Assembly: GCA_905331295.1 (NCBI GenBank)
Contig: CAJNYD010000449.1
Span: 124,001 to 188,000 of the forward strand
DNA: 64,000 bases
Direction: 5' to 3'
Origin: Rotaria socialis
Lineage: Eukaryota
In this document: positions 30,401 through 58,228 of the stretch, one piece after another
Numbering within the stretch: position 1 is the stretch's first letter
Layout of the letters: each line of letters starts with the position of its first letter
Notes under the pieces: generated by a model
Database searches by the model: none
Told to the model about the DNA's origin: nothing
Seen by the model: only the letters and a program-made list of their open reading frames with translations
Made by a program: the position numbers and the translations under genes

Positions 30401-33400
30401 CCTACATATTTTTTCATCATCTCCAGTTAAATCTAATTTCACATCGTATTATTGTGTTTCTTCGTTGTATTTAGTTGAATCCTTCTCTTATCATTTCTTT
30501 CAACCTCTTGATCTATGAATGGAATTCACAATTTGTAAATGATATATTATACAGTAATACATCATTGAAATTGAAGTTTCGTTGCTTGACAAGACACCTA
30601 GTTATATCGATAGAAACTGGTATTCTCTTTCGATTTCCAATGAAAAGCATAACTAATCTCTGATTTGTTTTCAAAATCATAGTCAGAGTAAATGAACAAT
30701 AGCTATCTACACCTAAATTCAACTATTTTTAGCTTTCTTGAATACAGTTACCTGTATAACAAAAGAATTGTCAAATTATTTAAAAAAAATAAAAATAAAA
30801 GGCTCTCTTCATAACCTCTCCATATCTCAGTAAATAACTTACTTTACACGATGAAGCAACGATTGACCCGGACGGATTTGATGCTACAGCAATGATTTCA
30901 TAACCATGTCCATAAAGCTTTTGGATTTCAGGCCAAAGTGTATTTTGTAAAAGATGTTCTTCAAGTGGTGGCTCTTCAATAAAACGAATATTCTAGTTTT
31001 TAATGAAATGTTTTCCTTTTTCTTGTCACTCACCACTCAAAATAGTTGCTTTAAAAAATCCTTCCTTATATAATGCATCAACAGTCATTGGATTTTCTTC
31101 GTTGGCTATTGTTGTTGTTTGATTTTCATCACTATCAAATATTGCTTTATTTGATAAACCTAATGCTGGTATATTAGCACCTTCAGGTAAAGATTGTGCT
31201 CTCTATGTAATGATCAAAACATATATTCATTCAAAACAAAGAGATAAGTAGATATTCTTACGGCAATATCTTCATCAACATTAATTTTTGTTATGCGAGA
31301 AAAATTTTCAAGAAAATTTTTTGGTGCATCAAATACACGCAAAATTTTTTCATCAGCACCGGATACAAAACGTTGTTGATTTGAACCAATAAATGCTAAA
31401 CATTTCATCTCATAGCCATGAATTTGTGGTCGACCAATTTCATGCCATGAAATGATCTAAAAACAAAACTTTTCACATAAAAATAGAGAAGAAGAAAAAA
31501 CGTCATTTACTTCATCTCGTTTCCACTCAGCATGTAGACGTGTTGTTTGATCTGTTGATACACTTAGTAAGTAGCGACCGCTGTGTTTATCCCAACAACA
31601 ATCTTCAACTGTATTAAAATGTCCACTATTAATTACTTGTGGAACTAAATTAATTCTATCATCAATCTACACGACCAAAAGAAAAAAACAACATCCTAGT
31701 ACACACAAGAAACTAAGCATTGCTTTACTTCTTCAATTTTCCATAAATGTAAAGCACCTTCATAACCATGACCAAGTATATATGAACCACATGGACTAAA
31801 TGTACAGCCATAAAAGCCAAGTGTATTACCTCCTACTTCACCAACACGAGCCTAGTAGAATTAGTATAAAAGGAAAGAGGAGTTCTCTGTTGCTGGTAGA
31901 GAAAAAAGAAGCTATAATTTTACCTTATCGATATACATTTTTTGATTATCATCAAAAGTCCATAAAACCATTGATTTATCCATTGATGCTGATAAGATTG
32001 TTGTTGCTGCTTTTTTCAAATCTGCAATATTACGACAAAATGTTCTAATGAATTTTTAGTTAAAGCAATCTACCTGTGTTGGGATACCAACAAAGACCAT
32101 AAATAGCTTCTTCATGTCCTAGTAAAATTGAATAAAGTTCAACATTAATATTAATTGAAGATTCATCTACATATTATAAATAAAAGAAAAAATAATTATT
32201 TATTAATCGATTTTTATGAAATCATTTTCTTATACCAGAATTTTTTAGAGCGAATGAACTTCGTTTTAACTTTAATATTGTCTCATCAACATTTGTTTGA
32301 TTATTATTTTCATCAAATGACAATTGCCAAATACGAATATAATTATCTTGAGAACAAGTTGCAACAAACCATTGTAACGGTGCTGAAAATAATTTCATCA
32401 CAAAAGATAGTAGATAATAAAAAGAAACAGAAATTTTTTGATTACTTAATTTTTGAATTGCTATTGAACGTATCCAGTCTTCATGTCCACTTAATACAAA
32501 AACTTGTTCAATCTGTATCGATAAATGAAATAAATAAAGTTTAAAGAGTATTTTCGTAAAATGTATTTCAACTCACTAACCACGCTGTTTGATACTTGAT
32601 ATATATTAACTGTATTTTTATCGGTTGCAACAAACAATAAGGATACTGAAATAAAATAAATGTTTCTGATTAACTTTTTTGTTTTATAGAAAAAAAAGGA
32701 AAGTAAATTCACCATTTTTATGATTATCTAATGGAACGAATTCCAGTGTAATAGCAAAACCATTTTGAAGATCAAGTGTATGAATTAAAGTAGCTAGAAG
32801 AAACAACCAAAAAATATAGTTTTCAATTTCATATATATTTTCATACCTATTGTATCAACAATACACCAAACTTTTACTGTGGAATCTGCAGAACCACTAG
32901 CTACATAGATATTATCATTAGAAGATTGCTGATATCCAATAAGAGTTGTCACACTATTCTGATGTCCAACAAGTGAAATACATATTCTATACTATTGTAG
33001 AAAAACAAAATTACGAGTTCTTTTATTTTCCATACAGATAACAAACTATCAAACGTACATCGTCGTCTATTCCTTTCCATAAGCAGATTGTTTTATCAAC
33101 AGATGCACTGAGAAAATAATAAAAATCACTAATGGAATCTAAACAACAAGAAATAATTGTGTTCTAAAAAATTAGTTATTAATTTTCATATGAAAGAAAC
33201 AAACTTCGTTGCTCTTGTCGAATCCATTTCACACAATTTACTCGTGCTTGATGACCAGAAAATGTTTTACGTATTGAAAATGGTGCAGTCTATGGCGAGA
33301 AAAAAGATATTATTTTTCAAAATAAGATTACAATTATATATTTCTATCATACATCCGAACACAGAGCTACACTATTTGTTACAGCATAAATAAGTCGTGG

Positions 33401-35899: not shown

Positions 35900-36181
35900 T
35901 TTTAAGTCTGAAAAGCAGATGCAGTTGAATAATTTTTAAAAAAAGCATAAAATTTGTTGAAAATTTTATTTTAAAGAAAATAAAAAATAGACCATAAATT
36001 GGTTCATACTCGTAGAACTATGTTATATGATTGCAAGCGTATCGTTTAAGGAAATACTGAATATCTTAAATAGGGAACACTAAATAATGATAATAATAAT
36101 ACAAGCAATAACTATCAAACAGTATATTCGTATGATAGATCACAAGAAATAAAAACAATATCTATCTGAGGAATGGACATT

Positions 36182-36431
36182 TTAGTCTATTTTGGGTTTT
36201 GTAAATTGTATAAGCGTTTCTGGTGAACGAAACAAGAAAATAATTTTAGCGAAAATTTGTTCTTCAATACGTAAAATATTATGTTCTCGAACCAAATAAA
36301 TATCACGTAAAAGATGCCAAAAGCGATCAACATTTGGTAATTCGTTAAACATAATTGTTTGGCTTGTTTGCAAGATTGTACGTAACAATCGTGCAACAAC
36401 AATCACAAATGTTGTATAGAGACCAATAATC
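36182..36431 (-). CDS. PIEZO: Piezo distal terminal exon (T2): inner helix plus CTD, closer to canonical
   Basis: Phase-2 acceptor aaatag|G at 36431; encodes (G)IIGLYTTFVIVVARLLRTILQTSQTIMFNELPNVDR...IFLFRSPETLIQFTKPKID*. Confidence 0.93.
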
Positions 36432-39400
36432 CTATTTAAAAATAGAAGAATTATTCGGATTAGCACAAGAAATTTATTATTACATCAATCTTAGTAAAGT
36501 TACGGAATAAATGAAAATGTTTACAGCTCGAAAAACATAACGAAAAACAATAGATCACTGATATCTGAACAGAAAAAAAACAAAAAAAAATGACTACTGC
36601 GTATTTGTTGTCTCTCGTGTCCAATAGAGTAACACTTGCGGATTACGATAAATATAAATTAAACGATCAAAAAAGTCAGCTTCAATTTCATGTTCCCGAA
36701 CAGTTCGTAATAAATAAATATCGGTTAAAAAATACCACAGTGCATCAACTTGTGGTAATTCATCAAACATAATTGTCTTCGTTGTACCAAATAATTGACC
36801 ACGAAGAAAAGATGCAAACACAGAAACAATTGAAATGTAGATACCAACAATACTACAGAGGATTTACATGTGAGAATCTTTTCAAATATTTCAAAAGGGT
36901 TAACAATTAGAACAACAAAGTTGTCCAACTAGTAAGAAGAAGAAGAAGAAGAACAAACTACTATAGATATTATACTAAAGAGAAAAATCAGCAAAGAAGT
37001 CCTTCATATCAAAAAAAAAGAAAACAAAAAAAAAACAATTAATAGAGCATGCGGTGAACATGAATGTGTTAGTTCCATATCGAGCAAAGCTATCAAAAAC
37101 AACAACAGTAACTATTGAAAAACTTACCCATAACGAGTTAGAAATGAAATATTAGCTGGTGAAATTTTATCATTAAAAAAAATCATGGTCATATAATTTC
37201 GACTGGGAAGCAGTGAACCTTTGAAAAAATGTTAAATAAATGAAATAGTTCCTTAATACAAATTTTTGAATGAGTCTTTAATATTTTATTTCTAATTGCT
37301 GATAGATTTTATCTTTCTACATGAAAATTTTACAAACAACTATCATAATTCTGTTCTGATTTTTTTTCTAGCGAACGCAATTGTCGTGAAACTCCCTGAA
37401 TTTCTATATATATATATTACCTGTTGATCCAGTTGATAGAAAAAAAAGATCCATCTAACAGACTCTTTAAGCTAGTAGGACCTCAGGAAAGCATTGTATT
37501 TTTTAAAAGTTAATGGTAAATTATCAATTAGTAAAAACTATTTTCATTTTCAACGTACATGATGCATTAAATCCATTTGCCCTTCGATTTTCAGACATTT
37601 CCCACCAAGCGCTTGTACTATTCGGTATTGATCTTGTCTGATAAACGCTCATAGTTATATTAGCATAATAGTCCCATAGAAAAACTAGATCAAATCAAAT
37701 ATCAATACAGAAAACATAATTTCTTTATGAATGAAAATACTTTTTTCAAATGCTTTAATGGAATCTGGTTTTGCTTTTGGTTTCACATGTAAAAATCGTG
37801 GCATTAACTGTACAATTGTAAATTCTCTGGACAAGAAAAAATACAAATATTGATCAAACTGCAAAGAAACTAAACCATGAAGTAAAACAAAAGTTTACCT
37901 TGTTCGTGTATCAAGAGTTCCATTAAGTATGTCAATCAATGCGTTTCGAGTTTGTCGATCATCTATTGCAATATTAGTTGTTTTTTCACCTGACACAACT
38001 GCAGCAATATCTTCTGAATCATCTTGATTTGGTGGATTACGTGTTATTGTGTATGAAAATCGTACAGGCACTGGTGTAGAATTTGATTTTAAACTATTTA
38101 TGACAATATCTCGTATTGGCTGACTTATTTCCCATAGATCGACACTTGTTGAAAATAAATTTACACAATGAATATCATTCGAATTGTAATCACGTAGAAA
38201 TGCATAAGCTGTGTCCTAAATACATTTAAAAAGCAAAATTTCTAAAAATTTTAAATGTCAAAGACGGTTTACTTCAATAGCTGGTGCAATCTTTGGTAAG
38301 TAAAGTGCCGCACGAAAGCTGTTATAATCAGCATTTGTAAATGAAGTTATGTCCCTATCTTGTGCCGTCATTTTATAAATTGGCTGTAAAGAACAAGAAC
38401 TTAAAATGACAAAAACCAAAATACTTGTAATGTTTTTTCTTACCAAATAACCACCTAATTTTATTTCAACACTAACTTCTGTTGGTGGATTGGGTTCATA
38501 AAATGATGAAGTAAATGAAAAAAACAATAATGGAAACCATATCAATAGAATTAATAAAGCTAACAATGAACCACCGATTCCATATTTTGATACTTTTGTC
38601 CGAGGTACACCACGCTTGGTTGGATATTTCTTGCAAAAAGGAAAAAAAAAGGAAAAAAATTTTATTCAATATTTTCTCATCTAGTTTTACTTCTTCTGCC
38701 CATCTTCCACACTTAAGTAAGTAAACATTTGAATAAATATCTTCTAATTGTAACCAACTTGTTAAGTCAAGTGCTGTATCCGTAAATATCCAATCCATAA
38801 TTGTACGTAATTCAAGTAAAAACGGTATAAATAAGTAACTGAAAACATTCTTATTATGAATATTTTAGCAAAAAATTTATAGAATAAAATTCTTACATTC
38901 GATAGAGTACTTGATTTACATAATTAAAACGTTTCATAAGAAAATTTCCTGCAATACGCTTTGGATAACCTAGTCGTACCTGTACTGATGAATAACCGAA
39001 ATAAACACATTTGAATAGATACCAAAATTGTGCCGCTACGTTTTCACGAAATTTTCTTTAAAAAAATTGTTTTCAACAATGAAAAAAAAAACAATTTGGA
39101 TTATTTCATACATTCGAGTTATTCCAGGTAAAACCAAAAATAACCAAACATGTACGGCTATGACTTGAAATAGTTGAAAGAACAATTTGCCGCGTACATT
39201 TCGACGTAAATAAAGTGCACGATCAATTATAATTAATACAAATTGAATTAATAATATAACAAGGAAAGCCACAGGAACCTTAAATATATTTACTCATGAA
39301 AAAACAAACGATTCACTAAACAAAGGGTTTTTACTTTATTTTCTTTTATTGTTTGTACTACATTTCCACCACTTTGTTCCTAGGAATAAAAAAAAATTAA

Positions 39401-42400
39401 GTTTAAATAATAGAAAACTCGATGCGTGGAAAATCATTTTCTTTCAAACTTTATAACTATTATAGGAATACTATCCCTACAGTGTCCCGAACGTTTCTTT
39501 TCTTAGCGAAATAGTAAAATTGTTTGAATTAAATCATACTGAATGTCTACTAGTCTAAGAGTCAGACTTGCGGTGAATCCAATTGATTTCGTGTAATCAT
39601 ACGAAATGAAGTACTGTGGTGGAAAATATTTCTTGCAAACTAGTTTTGTAATGGTAGATTTTTACATGCAATAGACAACTATGATCACTATAGGTGATTA
39701 ATTTTTCTGGATACTTTTACTTAATTACAATTAGAGGAAAATCTTTTAAACTAAAATAAAGAAGAAAATTATTTGAAAGTACATACTCCAAATTGACTAT
39801 AAAAGGCAATAACAATAACCATATTAACAAAATCACAGAAGAACATGGGTGCATAAACGTCACGAACAAATAATGCTTGTTTCAGTTGGCGATAGAATTT
39901 CATAATTGATTTCATAAAATATATATTACTGAAAAAAAATAAACATTAAGCTATACAATAAAATACGTATATAGCTACTGAAGAACAACAAAAATAAACT
40001 AAGAGAAGATTTAAACATGCTCGACTAACAAGTTTTTCTATGTGTGTTAATATTCATACCTCATGAAGTATATGAATCTGTTGTGTAATTTATATATACA
40101 TATACATAAATACATAGGTGTAGCTATAATATAAGAATTAATTTTTAAATCACTCACCTTTTTATGCGTGGTTTTTCTAACTGATCATCTGATTGTTGTT
40201 GTTTTTGTTGTTCTTCATTACGAGCGGTATGTTCAGTTATAGAATCTAAATATGCAATCAATAGAATTATGATAGTATTTTAATTTTTTCGCCAAACATA
40301 TATAATCATGATAGAACTGTGCTCTAATTACAACTTTCATATTACAAGTAGTTTACTTTACATAAACGTAACAATGGGAACTATTCTCGGAAAGAAGAGG
40401 TTTCTTGTAAAGAATATCGTTAGTTCCATCCAAAACTATGCTGATATTGAGATTTAATTAGCTTAATCATGCATTGAAAGTTTCATATATGACAAATATT
40501 TTGCATTGTCAAATAGTAAATGAGAAAGGAGATAGAGTTTTTCTAAATTGTTACTAAAATATGTTTATTTCTTTTTAAAGGCATGTTATCATAAGAAGAA
40601 AAAGTTTATTCTCTCTTCAAATTCTGCTTTATGAATGAAAGTCAAAGCATGTTCTCTTGAGTAATATTTTATATCAATATGATTACTTTGAAGTTTTTAT
40701 GACGTAATATTCTCAAACTTAAAATCTCAGTAAAATAGTCCTAACTAGTGTTCGGTAACTCGAATTAATATGAAACTAAAGAATCGAACCGAAATTTTGA
40801 AAAAGATACGAAAAGTTTGATTTCGTAATACTATAAAATAAATATTCTATCAGATATGTCTAAAGCTGTTTTAATTCCGTGGTATCTGTAATTTCATGAA
40901 ATAACAAGTTAAAGTTTGTCAAAGGGAACTTTATAATTGTTGCATATTTATCATGATTTATTGATTCTAATAGTATGTAATAGTTTAGGAAACAAGCTCT
41001 AGTCACTTCTGGAGAATAAAGCAACAAGACATCAAATGATTATCAGTTTTGTTTAATTACACTCAGTAAATTCTATACAAGTGCATGGATACTGTACTAA
41101 AAAACAATTCTATCACTTGAAAAGATGTGCTGTTAAAGTTGCATTGTGCGAGCAAAAGAAAATTTTAATTCTTTTACGTACTAATTGGTGTTGTTCGTTC
41201 TGATTTCCAAAGTCCGAGTTGCTAGAACGGGAGAAAATGAAAAGAAATAAGAATTTAAATTCTTTTAAAACTTATACTTTTAAAATAGATCGATGAAGAA
41301 ATAATGATAAAAGTAAAAATAAATCAGCAAATGAAGTAGCACTTTGTTTTCGATCGATTCCAATAATGTTTACTGCTGCTAGTGGACGAACATCTGCTAT
41401 GTCAGCATTCCATGGATAAAATCGAAATTGAAATATATATTCAACTACGATCATGGCTTCTGTATATGTCAAAATAGTAATCCAAAAATTTCGTGTTGGC
41501 CGTGGTGATAAAGTTGCCCAAAGAAATATTGATAATGGTAGTGGGATTGATAAAAGTGCGCCGCTTGTTAAATGATCTATTATCATAGCTGAATAGCATA
41601 GAAGTTCAGATCGAGACATTGTTAAATAAAATAGAGAATCGAATAAACGGTAAAGACGTGAATGTTCACTTAATGGAATCGATTGAGATACTTTTCGAAG
41701 AGAAATATTCCTATGTAATAATAATAACAAGTAAAAATAAGACTAATCTAAGAAGAAATTTACCGAGATTGTTGACCACCACCACCACCACTACCATCAA
41801 TCATGTCATTGATGCTAATTACCGAAGTCTAGACAAGAATAAAAAAGAATGAAGATTTTTAGCGAATAATTTTACAATGAAAAATTTACTAGATCAGAAC
41901 TTGTTTCCATTCGCATTCGTTGTTTTTGAAAAACTTTGTCTTCCACTTTCATTTCAGCTAACTTATTTGAAACTTCGCGATAATCACGAGAATTTCGATT
42001 AACAAAATCAATAAAATAGTCAACAATAATCCAAATAATTAAACGAATTTTAAATAAAATCTGTTTTTGTCTTGTTTTCAGTTTTTCTTTTTAAAAAAAA
42101 AAGAAATAAAATCATTAAAAACTATACGATAAATCTCAAAAATATAATAGTCTACCTTTGGATTCAACAGATGTTGCCTGTTCAGGTATTGTTGAATCTG
42201 GCATTGTTTCCATTGTTGTGGATGAAAGAGGAGGAGGAGGAGATCGTGGTCTTATAATTAGTTCTTGAACATTTGATTCAAGCACAGATGATTTTCGAGG
42301 CTCTGTAAGAGAGAAATTAGCATTCATTTGTGTGTTTTTCTTCATTTCAAAAGTAAAATTTACTTTTAAGTGAGTCACCAATACTTTCATCTTCATCAGT

Positions 42401-45400
42401 TGCTACTAAAACTTGAAAAATCTATTTAGAAAAAAGAAAAGAAAAACATTGATATAATTTTTCTTTCGTTTGAATTTCTTCGATTATGAGTAAACCTGAT
42501 TTTGAGCAGCATCAGCTTCATTTTGTGCTCCCTCATCGTCATCATCTTCTTTTTTTTCGTCTGATTCATAATCAAACATATAATAATCAGCCGATCGTAT
42601 AGCTATAATAATTCAATAAAATATTTTATTTAAATTGATTCTAAACAAACCTTCAAAATGTTCAGATGATTCTGTCAGTGTCGAAGGACGTATACTCTCC
42701 GATTTATTCAATTTCGATTGTTGTTCTTTAATTCGTTTTAAATTTCGAGTTATTTTCGATACGGTTTGTTCTTCACGTAGACGATCTTCTTCCATTCGTT
42801 TCAGTGATATTTGATTAAATAAAGCAGCACCTTGGCTAGCTAATTTAGCTTGAGAACGAAGTTCAGTTACAATATGTTCCCAATAGTAACTACCAAACAT
42901 TCGTTTTTGCAATAATAAAAATATCATACAAACGCCATCCCTTCAAATAATACAAAATTTATTTTTATTGTACGATTATCAATCTTAAATTGTAGTGATT
43001 TGTTTTATTTATACAATAAAATCGATGATGACAGATTTTTTTAATTATGACATTTCGTAGAAAGAAGAGTGTGAGTGAGGATGAGGATAAGGGTAAAGAT
43101 GATCCCAACACCGACATCCTCAAGATTCAGCTAAACTTTTAAAAATATCTTTTTTTTTATGCTTAAATAGATGTATCTTTGTAAATACTACATTTTGTTT
43201 AAAAATAAATAATGTGAAAATAGTGTTAAGAAATAATGATGATCAAAACTATGTTAATTTATTTGGTGATCAAAAGTATTCTCACCCATTAAAGATGTGC
43301 AAATATACGAATGATCTATTTATTACTCCTTAATTGTAGAAAATTTTGTATATTACATTGTTATTTCTCTAGAAAAATCTCTCAATCAAAAGCTTTCTTC
43401 TGTCTATAGGAATAAAATTGTCATCGAATTAATATATGACATTATCATAATTTTATTTACATAAAAAGACTGGCATCAGCAGCATCTCGATCACATTGTT
43501 CATTAGGATCTAGAATTTAAATAGCACAAAACAAAATGAATTTAATGTACCATACGAATAAAATAGAGAACATCTAAATAGACTTACCCTTATAAGATAC
43601 ATAGCAATCACTTGACGGTTTAAAATAAGATTTCAAACATGGTACAAACAAATCCACTATTATGCAAAATGAAGAAGTGCGCGATGTCATCGTGCAAGTT
43701 GAAGATGGATAAAGAAGCATGCAAACTACCACCTAGAGAAAACATTCAATATATGACATCAATTTTCTAATTAAACTATTAGATTTAAAAAAGAAGAAGA
43801 AACACGCTTGATGAAATAAAATACTGATCCTGAAATGCATCTATACATTCAAGAAGAGTTTGAAAATGAGAAAAAACCTGTTACAGGAGTATTGCTAGGA
43901 TGGTTGAATCTCTGAATTCCTGATTGTAAACAAGCTATTGCAAAGACTTGTTGTATTAAACATTGACTTGATAGAACACCAATGCAAGCAACAACCTGAA
44001 AGTTTTTATCTCTCATTTGCCTAGTATTATTATTTGATAGAAAGAAAAAAGACCATCATCATTCAGATTTCTCCTGGCATACCTGTAAACATGTCTTTAA
44101 AAATATTACTGAAAAACAATAGTATATTAAATAGTTCCACCTAAAAACAAAACAAAAATGAAATGCAAGAAAATGTTCAAAATAATCAACATACGATCGT
44201 AACATAAAAGCGACACGTTTTGTTAAAAAATCTTGACCATACCAAAGAAAATAAAAGCATGCTATAAGATAACCAAGACCAAGTAGACTAATGCGTGTTG
44301 TTCCAGCAAGATAAACAATCGATAAAACAACCCATACGCCATACATAAATACTGCATATTTTATATGATCAAGCCAATGTCGTTTATTTGTTACAAAATC
44401 CCATGTTGGATTATTTTTGTACATATCGTCATCGTAAATTATTTCACGATTTGATCCACCAGCATCATTATACACGTGATCCTTTTCGTTTGTTTCATAT
44501 GCAAATACACGCCATTGTTGACAAGCAAATAGAAATTGAAAGAAATCAGCTACAAATGATTTAACATTTACAGAAGTATTTAATAAATATTAAGTATATA
44601 TATATATATATATATTACTAATCAACTGGGTTGCCAATGGTGGATCTATATAATCGGGCAGATGAAGCCAATGTCTCAATTGTGGCCAAACTCGTATATT
44701 GATATTTGTCCATGGATACTCTTAAAATGATTTGAAAAATTTATTAGACTATTCGAACAAAACTGTAAAATGAATGTCTATCTCAAAAGATGTTCATCTT
44801 ATGATTATTATGTATGAATATAAGATAATCACTTCTTTTTCAAAGCAAAGGATATCGATAAATTCTCTTCTTCTGCAATTTGTCGTATAATTAGACTGAA
44901 TTCTAATGATTATTTTGGGTGTTTGAGTCAAAAACATGATGAAAGTAAAAATTTCTTCTATTTAAATCGTGAAAACGAAAACCAACTTGGTTTGTGAAAG
45001 CAAAAGCCTTCATCCTGTTCATAATTATGAAAATCAGTGAGATATAAGAAAAGACTAAAATGAAAAATTTCTCAGCTGGGATCAATCGAAAGCTAAGAGT
45101 GTTCAATTATGTCGGCATGAGATTATAGTTTTCAGCAAGTTACCATGCAAATCAAAATAGAATGACTTAATGGCTGTTTTCGAATCTAATGGAAAAATAA
45201 ACTCTGAAATAGTTTTCTCTTGATCAAAATTAAAACTATGCGGTTATGCGCATCTCTAATCCTGAACTGTAGTTCTCTATAATACATCTTTTATTCTTTA
45301 AGAATAGAGACATCGATAAGTGTCTTCTAAGTCAGGACGAATACTTTTTTGAAATATGAAAGATTACTTTGAATTCAAATACTGAATAGTTAGATGGACA

Positions 45401-48400
45401 TTCCAAAAAAAAATAATTTAATCACTTACCAAAGCATAGAATCGGTGGTGTTCCAACAGCAATCATGTATTGCAGTGGAAAAGCAATAACTTGAAATAAA
45501 ATATAAATAGGCCATAATCTTCGCACGGCTCGTCGCCTTGAAATCAAAAATAGGCCAAGCCATATGGCATAAAAAACAGCAACGACGTCAAGACGAACAC
45601 TGATAACAATTATTGTTGTTATATAGCATATCTAAAGAGAACCGTGATAGATATGTTTAGAAAATGTCTCGAATTAGACATCTTACTTCTAAACCGAATC
45701 GATAAAAGAGAAAATTCAAGAAATATTTAAAGAAATTCTTTAAACCTTGATCAGCTTGTTGATAACTAGTAATATCATGTTCGTATGTATCATCATGGAC
45801 ATTTTTTAATGCAAATGGTTCAAATAAAATTGGGAAACGATTTTCAATAAGATGAACATTAAAATGAACTGATAATGTTAAACGACGATGTCTTTGCCGA
45901 TATCGTACAATTGCATCAAGTGTTAAAACAATTGTTAATATTATATACGTCTAAAAAAGAAAAATCTATCTTTGTTTTTTTTCTGCTTGTGCTTAAGAAT
46001 TTTATTTCTTTTTACGCCAATGAATTGACCCATATTTGATGTTAATTCAAGACCAAACCATTTTGCTGTGTCATTAGGTATTATATTGGCAGCTGAGCCA
46101 AGCGTAACATTTAAATTGAACGTCATATTCGAATCCAATGTCATATTTGAATCAATCTAAATTAATTGTTTAATGATTTAAAAATAAAACGTTGTTCTTT
46201 TTGATCATTTTACTTTAGAGCAACTTTTAACAAAAATATTTTTTTCAATTATTTGTTTTTTTGCTATTTCTAACTGATAACACATTGATGCAAGAATATA
46301 AATGCCAGTAATAATTAATGTTAATAAATTAATTAATGACCGAAGACGTAATAGTGTTAAACCGATGGTTGTTAAAATAATTAATGATATATTAAATGCA
46401 CAAACCTAAACAAGAACGAGAATGAATAATAATAATTGTTGCACTAAACAAAGATTTCGACTATATTTCTTTTACTTTGAGTGAAGCAACAAGAACCATC
46501 ATGAAAAGAACAAGTTTGTATGAATGTAATTCACCGAAACGCCAACTATAATAAATGATTTGCTTATAGAAACGATTGGCTCGAAAATAAAATTTATATA
46601 AAGTTTCTAGCCAAGTTTTCGTTTCATTCTTTAGTATCTGTTGACTATGAAGGCTGTTTACATGTTCAGTATTTTCTAAGCATAAAGATTGAAAATGAAT
46701 AATAATTAAAAACAACAAAGAAAAGAAATTTTACGTTTTGCATAAGCATGAATATCTTTTAATGTGCCATTTGGTATTCCTTGAATGTTTTTATCACTAG
46801 AAAATTATACGAATAAAACAAAATGGCTTATTCTATCGAAAAACAATGGTGATAGTTTATGCTCTTCGTTAATAACAGACAACTCAAAGAGAAAGAAATA
46901 TGTTAATTATTACGATGATCATATACATATTATAGTTTACATGTGGAGCGAGGTAGATCATGCGTATTTATGTTCATGGTATGTGAATCTTTCTTGGATG
47001 AAAAATTAACGATCAGATACTATAGAATCATATAGAATTTATTAAAAACATAATTTACGGGAAATTGCACACTTGGAGTTTCGCTGTGTTCTCAATCTTC
47101 CACAGTTATCAAAAGCCCTTCGGAATTAGGACAATGAGTGCGTTTTAGATGCAATTGTAACTTGATTTCGACTTCAAAAGCATTTGCGAGCGGAACATCA
47201 TTTATACAACTAAAGAATCACTAGAACTCGTGGAACAGTACAACTAAGCAACGGTGATTATCACTGTGAAATCACACCATTGCCATTTGTTCATTAATTT
47301 GTGCAACAACAAACAAACTGGATTCAAATTTTATTCAGTTTGTTTGATATAGATACAATTACTTTAAAACTATACTCGACAAGTTTATCGGCTATAGATA
47401 GCGATCCAATGACAGTTAAAATTAAGAATAGTCAGCTCTTAAATAAACTTCAACTGTAATCCATGTTAACGTTGATACGATCCAACGTGCGCAGATGAAA
47501 CTCTCGTGTGTGAAAACGATTTGTCTCGAAAATTGTCTTTTCCTTATTCAACTTCTAATGTTACGCTCATCTTTATGTGAAGCATGTATATTTTGTCTAT
47601 TTTCTTCTGATTTTCAGCATACTATTAGGCACAAATAAAAGCTTATCAAGTAATATCCACTGAACTTAAATGATAATTTTTAACTTTGTATTTATCTAAA
47701 AATGAAGAAATCTGTGTTTCAATCAAGCATAACAGTGGTGCATATGGTATGTTTCTGATGAAAATCAGACAGTAAGACATGCAACAATGAATGATCGTTT
47801 CCAAATTCTATCTTATATTAGACGATAAAAAGTTCAGAAAAAATTGATATTATCATAATTTTTTAAGAAATTTCGACAACTGTAGAAAATCGGCCACATT
47901 GCCCAATTTCTAGTGCAATTCGAACACTATCCAGATTCTGAATGTTCAATGTTCAGTAAATAATAAAGAATATGCTGAGCATCATTCAACGCATGTGAAT
48001 CCTTTAGAAACCCATTGCATTGCATAGAAATCATGTTTGTACTATTCAATTTTATCTTTTCTAGAAGATTCATTGATAAATGTTTTGAACATAGTGTATG
48101 TGATCTTCATTTCATATTTAAAAAAATAGATACTTCAAGATTCGTTGATCTAAATTAACTTTTTTGTCTTCACTAATAATGTTGACCGATTTTCTTGTAT
48201 ACGACTACAATCTGTTGACTAGAAATTAGCTGATTATTGCTGAGACGGTGTATGTCTTTCTCTCTATTTAATACAGCACAGTCATTGTCTCTCCGAATGA
48301 TACCAAAAGAAACCGATTTTTCGAAGTTCTACTTCCAATATAACAGGGTAGTTCATTCTGAATGCTTTCGAGTTTTTTTTATTTATCCTATACGATCTTT

Positions 48401-51400
48401 ATTCTTGAATAAATGTTGTAATTCTGCAGCAATTAAATAACAGCGTGGAATCTGTGTATATCATCTACAATATCTTGATGCCATAAATGATACCCATTTT
48501 TTTGGACTGAAAAGCAATTAACCTATTCGAAGACTCTCTTGGTAATTATCATAAGTATTCTAGTTTTTCATTCGCATCTATCTTTTCCTTCAAATTATTT
48601 AAACTACTAAAAATCAATTTCTCGAACTGTTATCGTAAGAAAAAAAAACAGATCTTTTCTTCATCCTATATAGTCATTCAAAAGAATAACAATGCAAGAA
48701 AACTACCTGGGCATCGTAATTAAATCCATCCAACCAGAATGAAAATAATAAAGTTGCATAATATTAACAATAAGAAATGTGCTTGGTGTCAATAATCTAA
48801 CAGCCAAAACGTCTGATGCAACAGCTTCAAGTCCAATTGATGCAAGGCTTGACGAGAAAAAGAAAACAGTTAGACTATAAAATATCTGTTATTCTTCTTC
48901 TTCTTTTTAATTAAACCTTACATTTCTGGACTAAATCGTGCTAATAAAAAATTTTCAACTACTTTAAACTAAAATATAAGAAACAAATTAAATATTATTC
49001 AAATTATTCGAGAGCGTCACCTGATAAATATATATTCCAATTAAAATAATCATTGAATAGATGATAATCGTTAAATGAAATGTAGCTGCTGTTCTCCGCC
49101 AAAATCCAAATGAAATCTTCAAATAATAAAAAAAATTGTTTTTGCATTTTGTATTACTCAATCTGTTTTTACTTGGAATGAAAGAATGAAGAATAAATAA
49201 AAAGCCATGTAGATTATTCGATAAATCACAACAGTATTCTGAATGCTAACAAGTAGCAGCATTCCACATGAAAAAAATATCCAATATTTTGTTAAAATAT
49301 TAATCAGCCATTGTCCTATAATACATATGAAATGCTTTTTTGATTATTTAAAAAAGTTCAAAGATTTTTACCAAATCGTCGCGGATATGAATCAGGTGAT
49401 CTACTGAATCGTTGATCTATAAAGAGAAGACAGCATATGAATACTTGTGGATTAAAAAAAATGTTTCTACATAAACAAATAAATTTTTTGAAACCTAAAT
49501 CAAAAATTTTTCGAATATAGCTAACCTTCAATGGTTGAAACATTAGGATTTTGCCGTTCATTTATATATTGTCGAAGTGTTAACCAAAAAAACATCATAT
49601 ACAATGACTAAGGAGAAATGAAGAATGAAATTTTGATTCCTGTCTTTTTTATTTACATACTTTAGCAAGTAATGGTACGAAGGCTGGATAATAATCATTC
49701 GTTTCGATGCCAATTTGTTTCATCGTTTGACGATCATAGGCAAATTCAAATTGATCAAAACTTATGTTGAGACCGCATATATATTGTAATGTTAGCAATA
49801 TTCCACCATAAAGTGTAAAAAATGGACTCATTCTTAAACACCACTTTCGAGAATTGGGTAATACCCAAAGAAAGCATGCCCAAAGAAGAAATACTAATGT
49901 TATTAAACTATGAAATGTTATACTCCATACCTAAATAGATTCATTTATAACGATATTAAAATTAATTAATATTCTTTTTGTTTTACCAGCATAGAAATTA
50001 TCGATAGTAAATAACTTTGTCTTTCTAATACACGAAGTAACGATAATGCAATAAAAACTATTCGTTCTTGCCATGTATGATCACCAGGTTGCTCTAGGCT
50101 CCATCGATTTGATGATTTTCGAGGGCTTTGTTCTGACGTATCAGATCTTTCGACAGTTTTAACTAAACTCTATAATATTTACAAGCAGAATTAGTAAATA
50201 TCATTATGGTAACAATAAATCAAGCTTTGACATTTAGATTAAGGAAATCAAATAATAAATCATAACAAAAAAGTGAATTTCAATGAATTATTAGTACATT
50301 GAAATCAAATATTGGGAAAACCTAATACAATAATGATAGAGCATTTAGAGGCTCGGCAGCTACAAAAAGCATAAATACTAAATTTTACGTTTATTTAAAA
50401 AGGAACAGTACTCACTAACAACTTAACTGGCTAGAGCTTTTCGCCAAAAATGGACTGATAAAGAAAATGAATGCCCCATTATTGCACAAAAGAAAAGGTT
50501 TAATCTATGGAGATTTATTGTAACGCACTATTCGAAGATCTTAATTCATATTGCCCTACCGTTTATATTATATTAATCTGATTTATTTTCTGTTTTATAA
50601 CTTCTACACGCAGAATAGAATAAACTACATCAATAATTAAATGTTCCCAGATATGTAAAAGATCTTGTGCTAGACAATCATTGTGCTAAATTTTTTCGTG
50701 CTGAGTTTCCACCAACCTTTCTTGCTTTATACTTTTTTTTTTGATTCAATACATAGAAGACTACTCATACAGAAGTGTAGAAAAGCATGCAGCCGAATTA
50801 TATATGAAAACAAAGGCAAACCTGTTTATCGGCACTGCGACGAAAATTCATCTAATTAATTTACATGCAGAATATGACACAAGCAAATGATTGAAACATG
50901 AAATAATGATATAATTTTATTCTTAGCCCATTTCTTACCTGTTGTTCCATAGATTGTAGTGTTGTACTGTTCAATCGTATTTTCTGAATAAGAACAAACA
51001 AATTGTTTTCTAATAGACAAATGATTCATTTCATTTACTCGTCGAGAAAGGGCTCGATCCGTTTCAAAAACAAGATAGAAATAAAGCAGCATAATAGCAC
51101 CCGGATTGACATAATCATTCCATGCAAGATTTGTTGCAAGATTTGGTTCATTTTTTGTACAATTAGTTGTTACAATGGCTGTTAAACCTGTGATGCTATT
51201 AAAAGAATTCACAAGATAAACGCATGCATATCAATTTTCTCACGCTAGATTTTACTTACTTGCTCCATAATGAAAATGGAGTTATAAATTCTTGAAAAAA
51301 TGTAAATTGATAGAGATAAAGAGTAAGTAAATGTATGGCCGCATAAATGACTAATAAGGAACGGAATAATACAAATTTTCTACCGAATTTGACAGATAAT

Positions 51401-53520
51401 GACCATGTAAATGCCATAATAATAAAGAAAATGAAATAAACAGAATTGATTATACTTGGATAGACGAATGCAGCACCACCCACAAAAATAAATTGAATAA
51501 ATAGACGTATACGTCGTATTATTGACAGTACGCGTTGCCAAAATTTCCCCTTATTTGCTCTACTGATACTGTTAGTTTTTGATGGTGATATATTTGTTTC
51601 ATTTGATATTGCAGATATTTGTAGTTCGGCAGTTTCGCGTCGTTGTAATTTCACTAGTATACGCCGGATAATAATAAAACAAATTGTCGATACAGCGAAT
51701 ATGATGATATCAGGAAAGACCAATCGTATGATTCGAATAACGTCAGCATTATCCAAACTTTAAATTAAAGTAAACAAAAACAAAAATAATTTACACTATG
51801 ACAATTATCTTTTTGTTCAAACATACCGTTCCAGACCAAAATATCGAAGAATCAGAGTAATCGTCGTACCTAATAATAAAGTTCACAATTAGTTACTGTT
51901 ATTTTTTACTGATTTCAATAATACATACAACTATTGAGCGTATGACCATAAGGCTTTTTGGCAACAAGAATGGATTGAAAGATTATTTGAGCAATAATAG
52001 CGACAAGACTAATTAAAGCAACAATAATGATAAATAAACGATAACGAGCTAAAATATATTTCTCGGGGTTTATAAAAATGAAACATTTATTTATAACTTT
52101 ACTTCGAATATTTCGTCTGTTTATTGAACCTAGCCATGGAATAGCAAGTAGAAGAAAACCATAGATAAACGAAGCAAAACTGTATCGGAAAACAGTTCCT
52201 AAAGATTTTTGAGTTAAATTAATATATTAATAGTAAAAAAACTTTTATTTTTACCGCTGAACAATACAATAGGAAGAAGGATGAATAAAAGGCCAGTTAA
52301 GATTGATCCACTCATGAAAGATAAAGACCTAGAGATAGAATTTTTTTTAAAAATGAGTCTATAAATAATAATTATACAATCAATTTTTCTTTCTATATTC
52401 AAGCGTCATGAATTCTATTTGAATAGAATGTCAAAGGTTCTTATAATTCAAACTTTGATTTAGTATTGCCATGCCGTCGACAACTGCAAATGTTAATGGT
52501 AATATCTAATATCGGCAAGAAATTCAGTCACGTCTGCACTAACTATTTATGTGCAATACTTTAACCTTCATTGTTAGTCTTGAATAGTATTTTTCATTTA
52601 AGGGAGGGGGGGGGCGTGACCCCCCAATTTTTGATTCAATAGGCTCATTTTTTTACGTATATCCAAAAATTTGTCTTCTGGCGTCTATAACTCGGACTAG
52701 GTACACCCAGATAAAAATAAAAATTGGAGGATATACGTAAAAAAATGAGCCTATTGAATCAAAAAAGTGGGGGTCAAGAACCCCCGCCCCCGTTAACAGT
52801 AAAAATACAACAGAAAAAGAGATCATATAGACAAAGGTTTTAACTAATTAATATATTCGAATAATGTCCTCTAAAAAGCCATATCCGTCGTATGATTGCA
52901 ATAGAAGCATTAATCTAGAGACTCCAAGATCATTGTATATTTCGATATCTATTCTATTTTGTTTCTATTCAATCTGAAACACGTCAGTTTTTGTTTCTAT
53001 TCAATCTGAAACACGCCAGTTTTTGTTTCTATTCAATCTGAAGCACGCCAGCTCTTGTTTTTAGAGAAAATTTTTTTTCCTGCTACAGAGATTAAAAAGC
53101 CTCGATAATACTAATAAAGAAAAAATAGTAATTATTGAAGTGGCCCATGTGACTAATGACAATGGATTTCTGTCATTCATAGAAAATATCTTACTTCTCA
53201 TCAACTACCATGGATAATGTAGGAATTAACATAGGATCATGAGAGGATATAATCGATATATTTCTTGGAGCTTCTATTATATTATTTCTTGGTAATAGTT
53301 GATCAGATTTGGATAGATAGATTTCATCTTGTTTTGCTGGTATTGAATTGTCACGAGTATAATATCGATCCTTATTAGGATCGCTGTCATAGTCATTATT
53401 TGTTGTTTGTCTTCGTCTTGGTTGTGGATGTTGAAGTTCAATATCAAATGTATTATTAGATGATAGTCTTCTATTTGTAGAATCAGTTGAGTTTAAATCA
53501 GCTTTATTGGAATACATCAT
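36182..53520 (-). CDS. PIEZO: Piezo mechanosensitive cation channel, many exons, with alternative pore/CTD terminal exons
   Basis: Conserved Piezo blocks: VFRYSFASFIYGFLLLAIPWL, IRSADYYMFD (latch), IIDRALYLRR, PFLLELRTIMDWIFTDTAL..WLQLEDIY (anchor), LLIWFPLLFFS (outer helix), FFNDKISP..FLTRYG|I(I/V)GLY, IMF(D/N)ELP and FLFRSPETLI. The canonical-looking ATG is at 52315; an upstream in-frame exon extends the CDS to 53520. Confidence 0.97.
36594..36852 (-). CDS. PIEZO: Piezo proximal terminal exon (T1): second, divergent inner helix plus CTD
   Basis: Phase-2 acceptor ctgtag|T at 36852; encodes (G)IVGIYISIVSVFASFLRGQLFGTTKTIMFDELPQVDA...IYIYRNPQVLLYWTRETTNTQ*. The ORF is intact. Confidence 0.88.
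43588..43732 (-). CDS. PIEZO: Piezo mutually exclusive exon B (145 nt)
   Basis: ctctag|...|gtaagt, phase 0 to 1; encodes VVVCMLLYPSSTCTMTSRTSSFCIIVDLFVPCLKSYFKPSSDCYVSYK. Confidence 0.8.
43878..43995 (-). CDS. PIEZO: Piezo mutually exclusive exon A (118 nt)
   Basis: tttcag|...|gttttt, phase 0 to 1; encodes VVACIGVLSSQCLIQQVFAIACLQSGIQRFNHPSNTPVT. Confidence 0.8.
52602..52792. mobile_element. MITE (~191 bp) with ~64-bp terminal inverted repeats, flanked by TTAA
   Basis: Left arm ...gacccccca..ttttgattcaataggctcatttttttacgtatatcc is mirrored by ggatatacgtaaaaaaatgagcctattgaatcaaaa...tgggggtc. TTAA at 52598-52601 and 52793-52796. Confidence 0.88.
52957..53052. repeat. 32-bp tandem repeat (3 copies)
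   Basis: gtttctattcaatctgaaRcacgYcag starts at 52961, 52993 and 53025. Confidence 0.92.
53195..53520 (-). CDS. Probable upstream coding exon of Piezo (108 codons of hydrophilic, disordered sequence)
   Basis: The ORF ends in GAG AA|gtaaga, a strong phase-2 donor. It matches the phase-2 acceptor tctctag|G TCT TTA TCT TTC ATG at 52329/52328. Confidence 0.7.
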
Positions 53521-54286: not shown

Positions 54287-54751
54287 TTATTGTTGTTGTT
54301 GTTGTTGTCGAGCAAGTTTTTCTGCAACTTGTTTGGCTATTGTGTCCATATTTCTTCGTCCTATTTGTGAAAGTACACGACCACCTGATGCATGTTTTTC
54401 GACAAATTTGACTTTTTCTAGTGATTGTATACATTTACGTACAACACTGCGTGAACCACGTTGGAAATGAGATGGACGTACACCTTTACGTTTACGACCA
54501 CCATAGATACGAGTAAAAGCGCCAACGCCTGTTCGACGTAAATAAAGAAATCGGGCTATTGATGCACATCGTGTATAATACCAATCAGGATCGACGGGTG
54601 CCATTTCTTTGTGAATACCTAATTTGACAATATCTACCCAATTGCCAGATGGTACTTCAAGTTTGCCGGTTTTTTTGAGAAATTCAGAAAATGCAGCAGT
54701 AAATTGTTGTTGATCAACGTCTTTTACGGAGCCACGATCGATTGAATCCAT
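54287..54751 (-). CDS. RPS19: 40S ribosomal protein S19 (eS19), intronless CDS
   Basis: [10 protein letters not shown]...[50 protein letters not shown] and [17 protein letters not shown]. The likely ATG is at 54751. Confidence 0.96.
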
Positions 54752-57298
54752 TTTTATGTTAGTAGTTTTTTTTTGGATTCTGTTAGAAAGATAAGAATCT
54801 GAAATTTCCAAGAAGAATTTCACTTATTATTTAATACTTTAAAAGTTTTATATTCAATTCAATAGGATGCTATAAAGACAACGACAACTAAAACAAAAAA
54901 TAAATAAATATGAAACACTTTGATTATGATCCGAATGGTTTGTTCTCCACCTATTCACCATCGATCCTTTCACATACATCAATCCTCTGCAGAAAACTTG
55001 AAATATAGCTAGTAATAGAAAAACTATAATGAAAAACATTTATAATCAATAGAAAACCCATTGGAATTTAAATTTAAACATCAAAAACAAATATCAAGAG
55101 GATTTCATGAACAAATATTATAGATGTCGTAAGGCGATGTAACGTTGCATGTGCCTGTTATTATCAAATTGTAATACTACATGAGAAAAAATATCAGATT
55201 CTTCAAAATTAATATCTTGAATTTCATATAATTTCAGCTGCTTATCACCAAAGTAATGCTAAAAAAATATTATCTACTTGCAATAGTCTAAATAAATCGA
55301 GCTTTCTTTACATAACAGTGTCGTGAGTTCTCATTGACAATCATCTATGAACAATAAAAAACAAGCCACAATTGTACTACTATTAAAATCGCAGCGATTC
55401 AATGAATTATACAATAAAAAAAAATGCATCAAATCTCACATCATACTGTTCAACATCTTGTTTATTATACTAAATTCACGTTGATATATTTTCACTCTGA
55501 AATCGGTATCAATTATTGTTATCGCCATTGAAACTTCATTGTTTGTGATCGTTTCTGTGCAGATGAATCTAGAATTATGAGTATACAATTAATACTAGGC
55601 ATTACTTTAGTTTTACAAAAATCATACTATAGAAAGATTCTTTAGAAATGCCTTATCACCCGAACACTGAAGACAATGAGTAACATTCTAAAAAGTGACT
55701 TAAACCTACTCTAGTATTGATTCGTCATTGAATATTCATTCTGCAGAAAATTCTAACTGGCGTGTGCTGAGATGTTTCGGATGTTTTTTCACTTGCATTT
55801 GTGAAATAGATCATGGTAGCTCTAAAATATTCAGCGAGTGTTTTAGATTTCGTAATCAGAATAATCACAAGCTCATACAGAGGTATTGACTCAACAAGAA
55901 TAGTCCTCACCACTAAAAACTGAGTTAAAAAACATATATACATGTGATACAATACGCTCCTAGTTCAATATCAGTACAGCAAGTAGAAATAATTAGTAAT
56001 TTGATGAATAATATGATTCATAATTTAAAGTACGCAATATAAGGTTATATGATGTTTGTTCTCATCCAAATGGCATTAAAAGACTCGACATCTGCATCAT
56101 GATAAATGCTACGATTGTTGATCATATAAATGAGCTACCACCGACAATTAATTTTAATTGTTAGCTATGTCAATAATACTCAGTTCTAATAGCTATTCAA
56201 GTGTTGAACTTCTAAAGCAACAGCAATTCGTGTGAATATGGACGGTACGATACTATGTAGTTTTAGTATCACCCGTAAATATTCACTTCATTTCCATTGA
56301 TCTGACAAATTCATTTTGTCGTATGAATGTTGTTTATTCTATTGAAGAGTATCTCTCTATGCATTACATTATAGAAAAAAAAACACAATTTGCTTTTTTT
56401 TTTACTATTATTGAAAGATTCAATAAGACAATAAGGAAAAGCTTAGTTCCAGAATTTTCTCACTCAAAAAAGAAAACTAACTAAAAGTTAAACCTTGAAA
56501 AACGCTTTCAAGATCGATTTCATTGCACTACTATTTTTAGTGCCCTTGTTTAAACAATAAAAATTGATTAATGTAAACTTTAAACATTTTTTGTTTGTCA
56601 CCTTATTACGTTTTGTTACTAGTGAAATTTGCTCTCTTCGTTCGTCTTTCACTGTATGTCACTATTTCATATGTGTACACTTGACGAATATAAATAGAAG
56701 TGGCATATGGTAATGCATGTCGATGCATGATTTCAGACATATTGATCTTGAGGGCTTTCATTCTTTTATTTCAAGATTGAGAAAAGTACATAGCATAACA
56801 TCTTTACGTTCGCCGTAGTATTATATTTCATTACTGTTCTCACAGTAATTTTATATTTTTAAAAAGCTTTTCACCTTAAATAAACATTTTGGAGAGTAAA
56901 AAGACTGGATATTTTTTTTATACGACAACATGACCAAATAGAAACCTTCAGTTTAGTAAGGCCCCTATCGTTCTAACATCGTATTGGTTCATCATTGTCA
57001 TAGATTATTGGCCGGTTCTGAACAACTTTTACATTAAATGATTCATTGACCTATAAAACATTAAAAAATGTTTTTTTCTCTTTTTCATAAAAGTACGATT
57101 AACTACAGATGTATCACGACGATAACGTATGCTCTCTATTTTTTCATTGTGTAACAATTGTCTTGTAGACGTTATATATTGACAAATTCTTTAATAATTT
57201 TAACAATAATTATTCCATTTTTACTTTGCTGTTTAATGTGACTTACTTTAAATATATGATTAATAGATAGATTCATGTCATTTATTTTTCAGATAAAA

Positions 57299-58228
57299 AT
57301 GTCGCTCGATACATTAACTCTTGCAATTATTGGTGGCTTTGGAATTATTTGTGTTTCTATTATTTATCTAATCAAAAATAAAAGTTCATCCGGTAATACT
57401 AAACAGAGTAAAAAAAAGAATGTGATAATTTCATTGGCAAATCCTGACACAAAATATAAATTTCCATTAGCGCACAAGGAAAATATTTCCCATGATACAC
57501 GTCTCTTTCGTTTTCAACTTCCATCAACAAAACATGTGCTTGGTTTACCTGTAGGTCAACATATTTATTTAACATCCCATATCAACGGTGAACTTGTTAA
57601 ACGACCATATACACCAACAACATCTGATGATAATCAAGGCTATTTTGAGCTTGTGATAAAAGTTTATCCTAATGGTAAAATGACTCAGTATCTTGATAAA
57701 TTTTCTATTGGCGATGTGATTGATGTTAGTGGCCCATCAGGTAATCTTATTTATACAGATAATGGTTTATTTGATATACGTCCACGCAAACAAGATCCTT
57801 TCGTTACTCGACGTATTCATAAGCTTGGTTTAATAGCGGGTGGCACAGGTATAACACCAATGTATCAAATACTGAATGAAATATTGAAAGAACAAACATC
57901 CAATGTACCTGGTGAGCGTATCGATATAAAAATTTGGCTTCTATTTGCGAATCAAACTGAAAAAGACATTTTATTACGTGATGAATTAGAACATTTGGCT
58001 GCATCGAATTCTGATCGTTTTAAGTTATGGTATACAGTTGACCGTGAAAGCGAAGAATGGAAATATTCAAAAGGTTTTATTAATGAAGATCTATTGCGTG
58101 AGCATATGCCACCTCCAGGTGATGATGTTTTAATATGTATTTGTGGTCCACCACCAATGGTTAAATTTGCATGCATACCTAATTTGGAGAAATTAGGTTA
58201 TGCTGAAAACATACGATTTACATTTTAA
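57299..58228 (+). CDS. CYB5R: NADH-cytochrome b5 reductase with N-terminal membrane anchor, intronless CDS
   Basis: ISHDTRLFRFQLP...LGLPVGQHI, RPYTP (FAD binding), GKMTQYL, IAGGTGITPMYQ, LLFANQTEKDILLRDELE and CGPPPM. ATG at 57299 follows a tttttcag acceptor. Confidence 0.96.
   Translation: MSLDTLTLAIIGGFGIICVSIIYLIKNKSSSGNTKQSKKKNVIISLANPDTKYKFPLAHKENISHDTRLFRFQLPSTKHVLGLPVGQHIYLTSHINGELVKRPYTPTTSDDNQGYFELVIKVYPNGKMTQYLDKFSIGDVIDVSGPSGNLIYTDNGLFDIRPRKQDPFVTRRIHKLGLIAGGTGITPMYQILNEILKEQTSNVPGERIDIKIWLLFANQTEKDILLRDELEHLAASNSDRFKLWYTVDRESEEWKYSKGFINEDLLREHMPPPGDDVLICICGPPPMVKFACIPNLEKLGYAENIRFTF

Follow-up and report, generated by a model that had tools for sequence, protein, structure and literature searches.

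Two candidate alternative pore exons at the end of a bdelloid rotifer Piezo gene

We describe a bdelloid rotifer Piezo gene that ends in two intact pore exons, and its shared body is likely to be spliced to either of them, giving two channels for which different inactivation is predicted. Most invertebrates have a single Piezo gene, and vertebrates have fast and slow paralogues. If the reading holds, a pore-exon swap lets a single gene supply both the fast and the slow kind of mechanosensor. It would also be a natural experiment, in which the same blade and cap carry two pores that differ at exactly the residues whose mutation in mouse Piezo1 defined the inactivation gate and the voltage dependence, and natural isoforms would make it possible to test what the pore module contributes to inactivation, to selectivity and to the mixing of subunits.

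Layout of the Piezo locus

The gene is a full-length Piezo on the minus strand, at ~52,300-36,182 of the window (the whole stretch of 64,000 nucleotides that was analysed), and it ends in two tandem phase-2 exons, here called T1 and T2. Searching with the full-length Piezo of Adineta steineri (P0251, tblastn) gave 27 ordered segments with ~59% identity over 52,199-36,185, which place a full-length blade, beam, anchor and cap upstream of T1 and T2 on the same strand. A Pfam Piezo_THU9_anchor match lies at 38261-38665, and the closest named relatives are bdelloid rotifers. The features of the gene are as follows.

37219..52320, minus strand: upstream part of Piezo, with the blade, beam, anchor, outer helix and cap exons (tblastn with P0251; start approximate)
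37128..37218, minus strand: last shared exon, with a phase-2 donor at its end (sequence; 9 metagenome loci have a homologous exon with its donor)
36853..37127, minus strand: intron before T1, 275 nt, with GCATG at 37052, ACTAAC at 37073 and pyrimidine runs (alignment of loci)
36594..36852, minus strand: T1, first alternative terminal exon, encoding inner helix and C-terminal domain (CTD), with its own stop (open reading frame, homology, dN/dS)
36182..36431, minus strand: T2, second alternative terminal exon, encoding inner helix and CTD, with its own stop (open reading frame, homology, dN/dS)

The shared exon ends in the donor GG/gtaagt at 37128/37127, and the two acceptors read ag/T at 36852 and ag/G at 36431. 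T1 is open for 85 codons up to a TAG at 36596-36594 and T2 for 82 codons up to a TAA at 36184-36182. Their products are 44% identical over 82 residues (E 6e-22), each aligns to residues 2466-2545 of mouse Piezo1 from the PDB (E about 1e-17 to 1e-19; T1 gap-free, T2 with one gap), and both match the last 80 positions of Pfam PF12166; no third copy of helix and CTD was found within the 64-kb window. Donor and acceptor positions, reading frames and the homology to Piezo1 and PF12166 thus bear out the original prediction of two alternative terminal exons with phase-2 acceptors and separate stops. An assembly artefact is ruled out, as the order shared exon-T1-T2 recurs in independent metagenome contigs and in other species, and the arrangement is not due to chance.

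Conservation, splicing and gate residues in rotifers

A metagenome scan with a T2-based alignment gave 372 pattern matches and from these 25 loci, 17 of them rotifer-like. The rotifer counts leave out the other 8 of the 25 (L017-L021, L023-L025), which hold a single copy in the DNA examined; most residue, motif and dN/dS counts also omit L009, L004 and L002, near copies of L008, L003 and L001, and the sequences in all counts are related and hence not independent trials. A complete T1 with an ag/T acceptor stands before T2 in 7 of the 17 rotifer-like loci (L005, L008, L009, L010, L012, L014, L015), and in 4 of the 17 an open T1 is cut by the contig edge (L006, L007, L011, L013). Gene models of Didymodactylos, A. 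steineri and Rotaria sp. Silwood1 have the same order of shared exon, T1 and T2, and T1 is present in Didymodactylos as well as in gene copies both linked and unlinked to a downstream PSMG2-like gene (described below). Elsewhere T1 has gone: L003 and L004 have a 57-nt intron and T2 only, L016:1500-1830 has lost the T1 acceptor and helix by deletion, and in L022:300-860 an inserted, partly palindromic element has replaced T1 and left a short remnant. Judging from these sequences, T1 is decaying or dispensable in some gene copies. As for the question raised with the original prediction, whether one exon is missing or frameshifted in relatives, T1 is intact in 7 of 17 rotifer-like loci and lost or broken in 4 of 17.

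Selection was estimated per exon (NG86; window and six loci; 21 of 21 pairs for each exon). The dN/dS ratio is 0.25 for T1 and 0.20 for T2, neither near the value of 1 by which the original prediction would have been put in doubt; the highest single-pair value is 0.53, and the T1 helix (codons 1-27) has 0.30. Synonymous divergence in T1 is 0.68, and its variable sites are spread 33/26/46 over the three codon positions. By these measures both exons are under purifying selection, T1 diverging faster than T2 (mean identity 73% against 88%).

Short signals around the exons are conserved as well. GCATG occurs 49-75 nt into the intron before T1 in 8/8 loci, with a chance of 0.03-0.09 per locus, and in 0/2 T2-only introns and 0/10 upstream control stretches; ACTAAC/T occurs in 4/8 introns before T1. 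The GCATG at 37052 may be an Rbfox-type site, and the ACTAAC at 37073 is presumably a QKI-type or branch-like site. AATAAA precedes the T2 acceptor by 26-47 nt in all 12 T1-bearing loci and in neither of the 2 T2-only loci, which is where a proximal last exon should have its poly(A) signal, and the copy at 36478-36473 is likely to be the poly(A) signal of the T1 isoform. In the intron before T1 we found no consensus RNA structure beyond 4 invariant pairs and no Rfam match. An antisense gene behind the conserved intron blocks was considered and rejected, given intron lengths in all three frames and antisense frames that vary between 26 and 60 codons.

These signals suggest how the choice might be made. 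For T1, the proximal acceptor would be used and the RNA cut at the AATAAA just before T2; for T2, T1 would be skipped, likely through splicing regulators acting on the conserved intron motifs. The two resulting channels would share one force sensor and differ in the pore helix and the cytoplasmic tail.

Spliced sequences joining the shared exon to T2 exist in relatives, namely the transcript-like L001 and L002 and the proteins P0010 and P0011. A 1173-codon frame runs across the junction in L001, and in both proteins the frame continues through several exons into T2. Of 32 rotifer proteins that include the end of the shared exon, none finishes in T1 alone: T2 is the end of 18, another 12 are models that fuse T1 and T2, and the remaining 2 run on into the intron, and a junction from the shared exon to T1 is absent among the 25 loci and 407 proteins. 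Contigs from four sequencing runs (X1-X4), none of which is recorded as RNA, were aligned to 35,900-39,400; they reach neither T1 nor the shared exons up to 39,400 and are uninformative on the T1 junction; X2 and X3 contribute short pieces only, and such contigs cannot show caps, RNA ends or expression ranking. The claim that two pores arise by alternative last-exon choice is supported by selection on both exons, by the T2 junction in relatives and by lophotrochozoan isoforms (below): the splice to T2 is seen in the relatives' transcript-like sequences, and the splice to T1 we infer.

Quite unlikely, in our judgement, is the alternative that T2 alone is used and T1 is a retained silent or decaying duplicate. 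The missing T1-only proteins (0/32), the loss or breakage of T1 in 4/17 rotifer-like loci and its faster evolution are what such a duplicate would leave. Against it stand a dN/dS of 0.25 that is maintained at the synonymous divergence and with the codon-position pattern given above, and the retention of frame, acceptor phase, GCATG and AATAAA in PSMG2-linked copies, in unlinked copies and in Didymodactylos.

If both exons are used, as we favour, the residues that distinguish them bear on channel behaviour. In mouse Piezo1, L2475 and V2476 form the inactivation gate, L2475S has a tau of 62 ms compared with 2.8 ms for L2475I or V, and K2479 carries the voltage dependence (PMC6349400); K2479Q inactivates faster and loses the voltage dependence (PMC10531961). 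At position 2475, T1 has Ser in 11/13 sequences and T2 has Ile, Val or Leu in 24/24. At 2479, T1 has Ser, Thr or Gln in 13/13, never a basic residue, and T2 has Arg in 24/24. The window itself has Ser at both positions in T1, and Ile and Arg in T2. The exons differ further at 2495 (Asp in 8/13 T1 against Asn in 21/23 T2) and at 2537 (Gln in 10/13 T1 against Glu in 20/23 T2), and R2482, M2493 and E2496 are kept in both. By analogy with the mouse channel, the T2 channel is predicted to be fast and voltage-dependent in inactivation, and the mouse mutants predict other kinetics for the T1 channel, probably slower and voltage-insensitive. The net kinetics of T1 are uncertain, because the effect of K2479Q opposes that of Ser at 2475, kinetics depend on the cap as well, and the mollusc pair described below differs elsewhere. 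Mixed T1/T2 trimers would be plausible only for cells that make both isoforms.

A tree with 65 rows and 82 columns places T1 in one clade (7 rows, support 100/99) and T2 in another (7 rows, 98/91). The acanthocephalan Pomphorhynchus groups with T2 (86/92), and two Piezo ends with long tails (P0023, P0173) group with rotifer T1 (92/98) and may represent the T1 exon in a species further removed. Since each exon forms a single clade and the shared order recurs across bdelloids, the duplication is at least as old as the sampled bdelloid radiation. As a separate observation, P0012 and P0210 have a T2-type CTD with an 18-residue low-complexity insertion between two helices.

Leader-bearing T2 RNAs and the downstream gene

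The contigs that cover T2 lead to further features between T1 and the next gene; that T2 also occurs by itself behind a spliced leader was no part of the original prediction.

36484..36564, minus strand: mini-exon of 81 nt, behind a spliced-leader acceptor AG at 36566-36565, with a 5-codon upstream open reading frame (X1 contig 1)
36432..36483, minus strand: 52-nt GT-AG intron removed in the X1 RNA, with AATAAA at 36478-36473 inside (X1 joint)
35948..36181, minus strand: 3' UTR of T2, with AATAAA at 35970 and a poly(A) site at ~35948 (X1 contig end)
34860..35907, minus strand: PAC2/PSMG2-like gene, its acceptor 40 nt after the T2 poly(A) site (Pfam PAC2 hits on two exon pieces, weak and below the cut-off)

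The X1 contig is 606 nt long, has one mismatch and consists of 21 loose nucleotides, positions 36566-36483, the 52-nt GT-AG skip, T2 and a poly(A) end, with 18 non-templated T at 35948 that represent the poly(A) tail. Contig 11 of X4, with 8 mismatches in about 350 nt, has the same letters joined straight to the T2 acceptor at 36431, which can thus take the leader itself. Together with the shared AG, the 21 loose nucleotides make up the 23-nt rotifer spliced leader (PMC3795323, Table 1), which bdelloids add to more than half of their transcripts (PMC1925144). The leader is the published one and is joined at genomic acceptors as elsewhere; what differs is its location within a gene, where it joins the acceptor of an alternative last exon and a site just after the T1 stop. 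X1 and X4 have the same year and size and are maybe from one campaign, and the leader may stem from priming with a leader primer, as the library type is unrecorded, yet both joints fall exactly on AG acceptors.

The X1 joint creates an ATG in frame, from the last two bases of the mini-exon and the first one of T2, and this form would encode an 83-residue peptide of helix and CTD, the ATG being preceded by the 5-codon upstream frame. In the X4 form no ATG precedes the helix, and at most a 56-residue piece of the CTD could be made from it. An acceptor-like CAGATA lies 132-140 nt before T2 in 8/9 loci of this type, and the donor that forms the ATG occurs in the window only, that is, in 1/12 T1-bearing loci.

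A PSMG2-like gene follows T2 in 9/14 loci examined. In L001:3520-3605 the 3' end of Piezo-T2, with AATAAA and a T run, is followed by the 3' 12 nt of the leader and then by the PSMG2-like gene, which is likely to be the next cistron of an operon-like unit with Piezo. Because this gene starts 40 nt after the poly(A) site, is linked in 9/14 loci and is preceded by the leader's 3' end in L001, the T2-only RNAs can be read as by-products of operon-type processing of Piezo-T2-PSMG2. Such an origin is the most likely one, an internal promoter being the other candidate, and the leader-bearing RNAs would appear when processing takes an unused T2 acceptor for the beginning of a downstream cistron. The leader site used in X1 lies upstream of the AATAAA at 36478-36473, so the X1 RNA cannot arise from cleavage at that signal.

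The same RNAs could be taken to mean that T2 works chiefly as an independent, leader-capped micro-gene encoding a peptide of helix and CTD that lacks the blade, with the full channel ending in T1. The T2 contigs of both runs do start with the leader at genomic acceptors, and X1 shows both an ATG in frame and a poly(A) tail. We nonetheless consider this very unlikely, given that spliced shared-T2 sequences exist, that some gene copies have T2 only, that the donor forming the ATG is confined to 1/12 T1-bearing loci, that X4 offers no ATG ahead of the helix and that a 5-codon upstream frame precedes the ATG in X1.

Paired Piezo ends in other animals and in known channels

When the fused Didymodactylos model was compared with 50%-identity representatives, a Mya arenaria model with two copies of helix and CTD was among the best 150 of 696 hits, and a search with the Mya protein (114 hits) gave further fused models from Solemya and Octopus vulgaris. 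Two other proteins (P0072 and P0120, one of them named Timema bartmani) have two diverged copies, in tandem, of an internal exon that encodes the inner helix together with the first half of the CTD, and one shared CTD end after both copies; in the stick insect, the arrangement resembles a pair of mutually exclusive exons for the pore helix.

Among 7 lophotrochozoan clusters (15/25 and 15/23 members listed for the two largest), at least 5 have both ends on the same shared sequence in RefSeq isoforms of one species, as in the following pairs.

Mya arenaria, two-ended isoforms: XP_052818789 and XP_052818791 (RefSeq)
Dreissena polymorpha, two-ended isoforms: XP_052229513 and XP_052229514 (RefSeq)
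Crassostrea virginica, two-ended isoforms: XP_078337037 and XP_078337042 (RefSeq)
Octopus bimaculoides, two-ended isoforms: XP_014782009 and XP_052831049 (RefSeq)
Lingula anatina, two-ended isoforms: XP_013388062 and XP_013388063 (RefSeq)

For Patella, each of the two ends comes from a different species, and in Biomphalaria one end is present in 12/12. RefSeq isoforms usually rest on RNA reads. As in the rotifer, these proteins have a shared body that breaks after the Gly-Tyr-Gly closing the cap into two diverged ends of helix and CTD, which stand in tandem in the fused models. They differ from the rotifer case in coming from automatic annotation only, and the mollusc pair is without the rotifer residue pattern, differing at position 2495 rather than at 2475 or 2479.

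The first mollusc-brachiopod exon forms one clade (12 rows, 97/89). Neither a rotifer-only origin of the pair (p-AU 0.127) nor a grouping of rotifer T1 with the mollusc first exon (p-AU 0.371) is rejected, so a single origin and two origins both fit the tests. The idea that a vertebrate-like T1 and an insect-like T2 descend from one bilaterian duplication is not supported, the tree being open there.

Gene models with two helices in a row and differing fusion points (P0003, P0242, P0251, P0066, P0217, P0219, P0222) are likely to be annotation errors made from tandem exons, a class of error that the present locus flags. Taken at face value, 12 rotifer and 4 mollusc gene models, the fused ones from Didymodactylos, A. 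steineri, Rotaria sp. Silwood1, Mya, Solemya and Octopus vulgaris, would mean that both exons enter one mRNA and that the subunit has two inner helices. This is hardly credible: the fusion point varies between models, the T1 tail past the cryptic donor, the T1 stop and the AATAAA are all conserved, Mya and Octopus RefSeq isoforms carry one end or the other, and a second helix would be expected to leave the final CTD across the membrane from its proper side.

A bolder version of the alternative-exon reading is conceivable, and we hold it to be unlikely as a whole. The gene would then make three products: a T2 channel that is fast, a slowly inactivating, voltage-insensitive T1 channel whose natural Ser equals the substitution with which the inactivation gate of mouse Piezo1 was opened experimentally, and an mRNA with leader and T2 only, for an 83-residue blade-less pore subunit that would enter trimers and tune or block them. 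Duplication of the pore exon would in addition be recurrent or ancient in rotifers, molluscs, brachiopods and stick insects.

Known Piezo splice variants are of another kind. Those of mouse Piezo1 and Piezo2 alter intracellular loops (PMC9127981, PMC10531961), and the C. elegans PEZO-1 isoforms G, K and L have a shortened N-terminal blade (PMC12951647). One Piezo gene likewise gives isoforms with different gating or inactivation in these animals, but none of the variants in the available parts of these papers swaps the inner helix or the CTD. A full-text literature search, with most subscription papers and supplements outside its scope, found no description of alternative pore exons in Piezo, and the part available of an octopus paper (PMC12919962) mentions Piezo only as a candidate gene. 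Outside Piezo there is a precedent in Drosophila Shaker, whose A and B splice variants differ in the pore-lining helix, where Ala or Val at residue 463 of S6 alters inactivation by two orders of magnitude (PMC2223370). The parallel is that of one gene with splice variants in its pore helix; the differences are that Shaker is a voltage-gated tetrameric K+ channel and Piezo a trimeric mechanosensitive one, that the rotifer gene would swap the whole helix and CTD (44% identity), and that its distal exon is also trans-spliced alone. The original statement that no pore-exon swap was known stands for Piezo, within the literature searched. The novelty lies in Piezo, not in channels generally.

The neighbourhood of the locus holds several other elements. 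Downstream, at window 30780-33000 on the minus strand, is a multi-exon gene that looks Elp2-like (no Pfam hit on the one piece tested). Just upstream of Piezo, at 52600-52790, lies an element of ~190 bp with long terminal inverted repeats, MITE-like by eye, and at 52955-53055 there are about three head-to-tail copies of a 31-nt unit. Further on, Pfam matches identify a ribosomal protein S19e at 54287-54823 on the minus strand and an FAD/NAD oxidoreductase at 57260-58228 on the plus strand.
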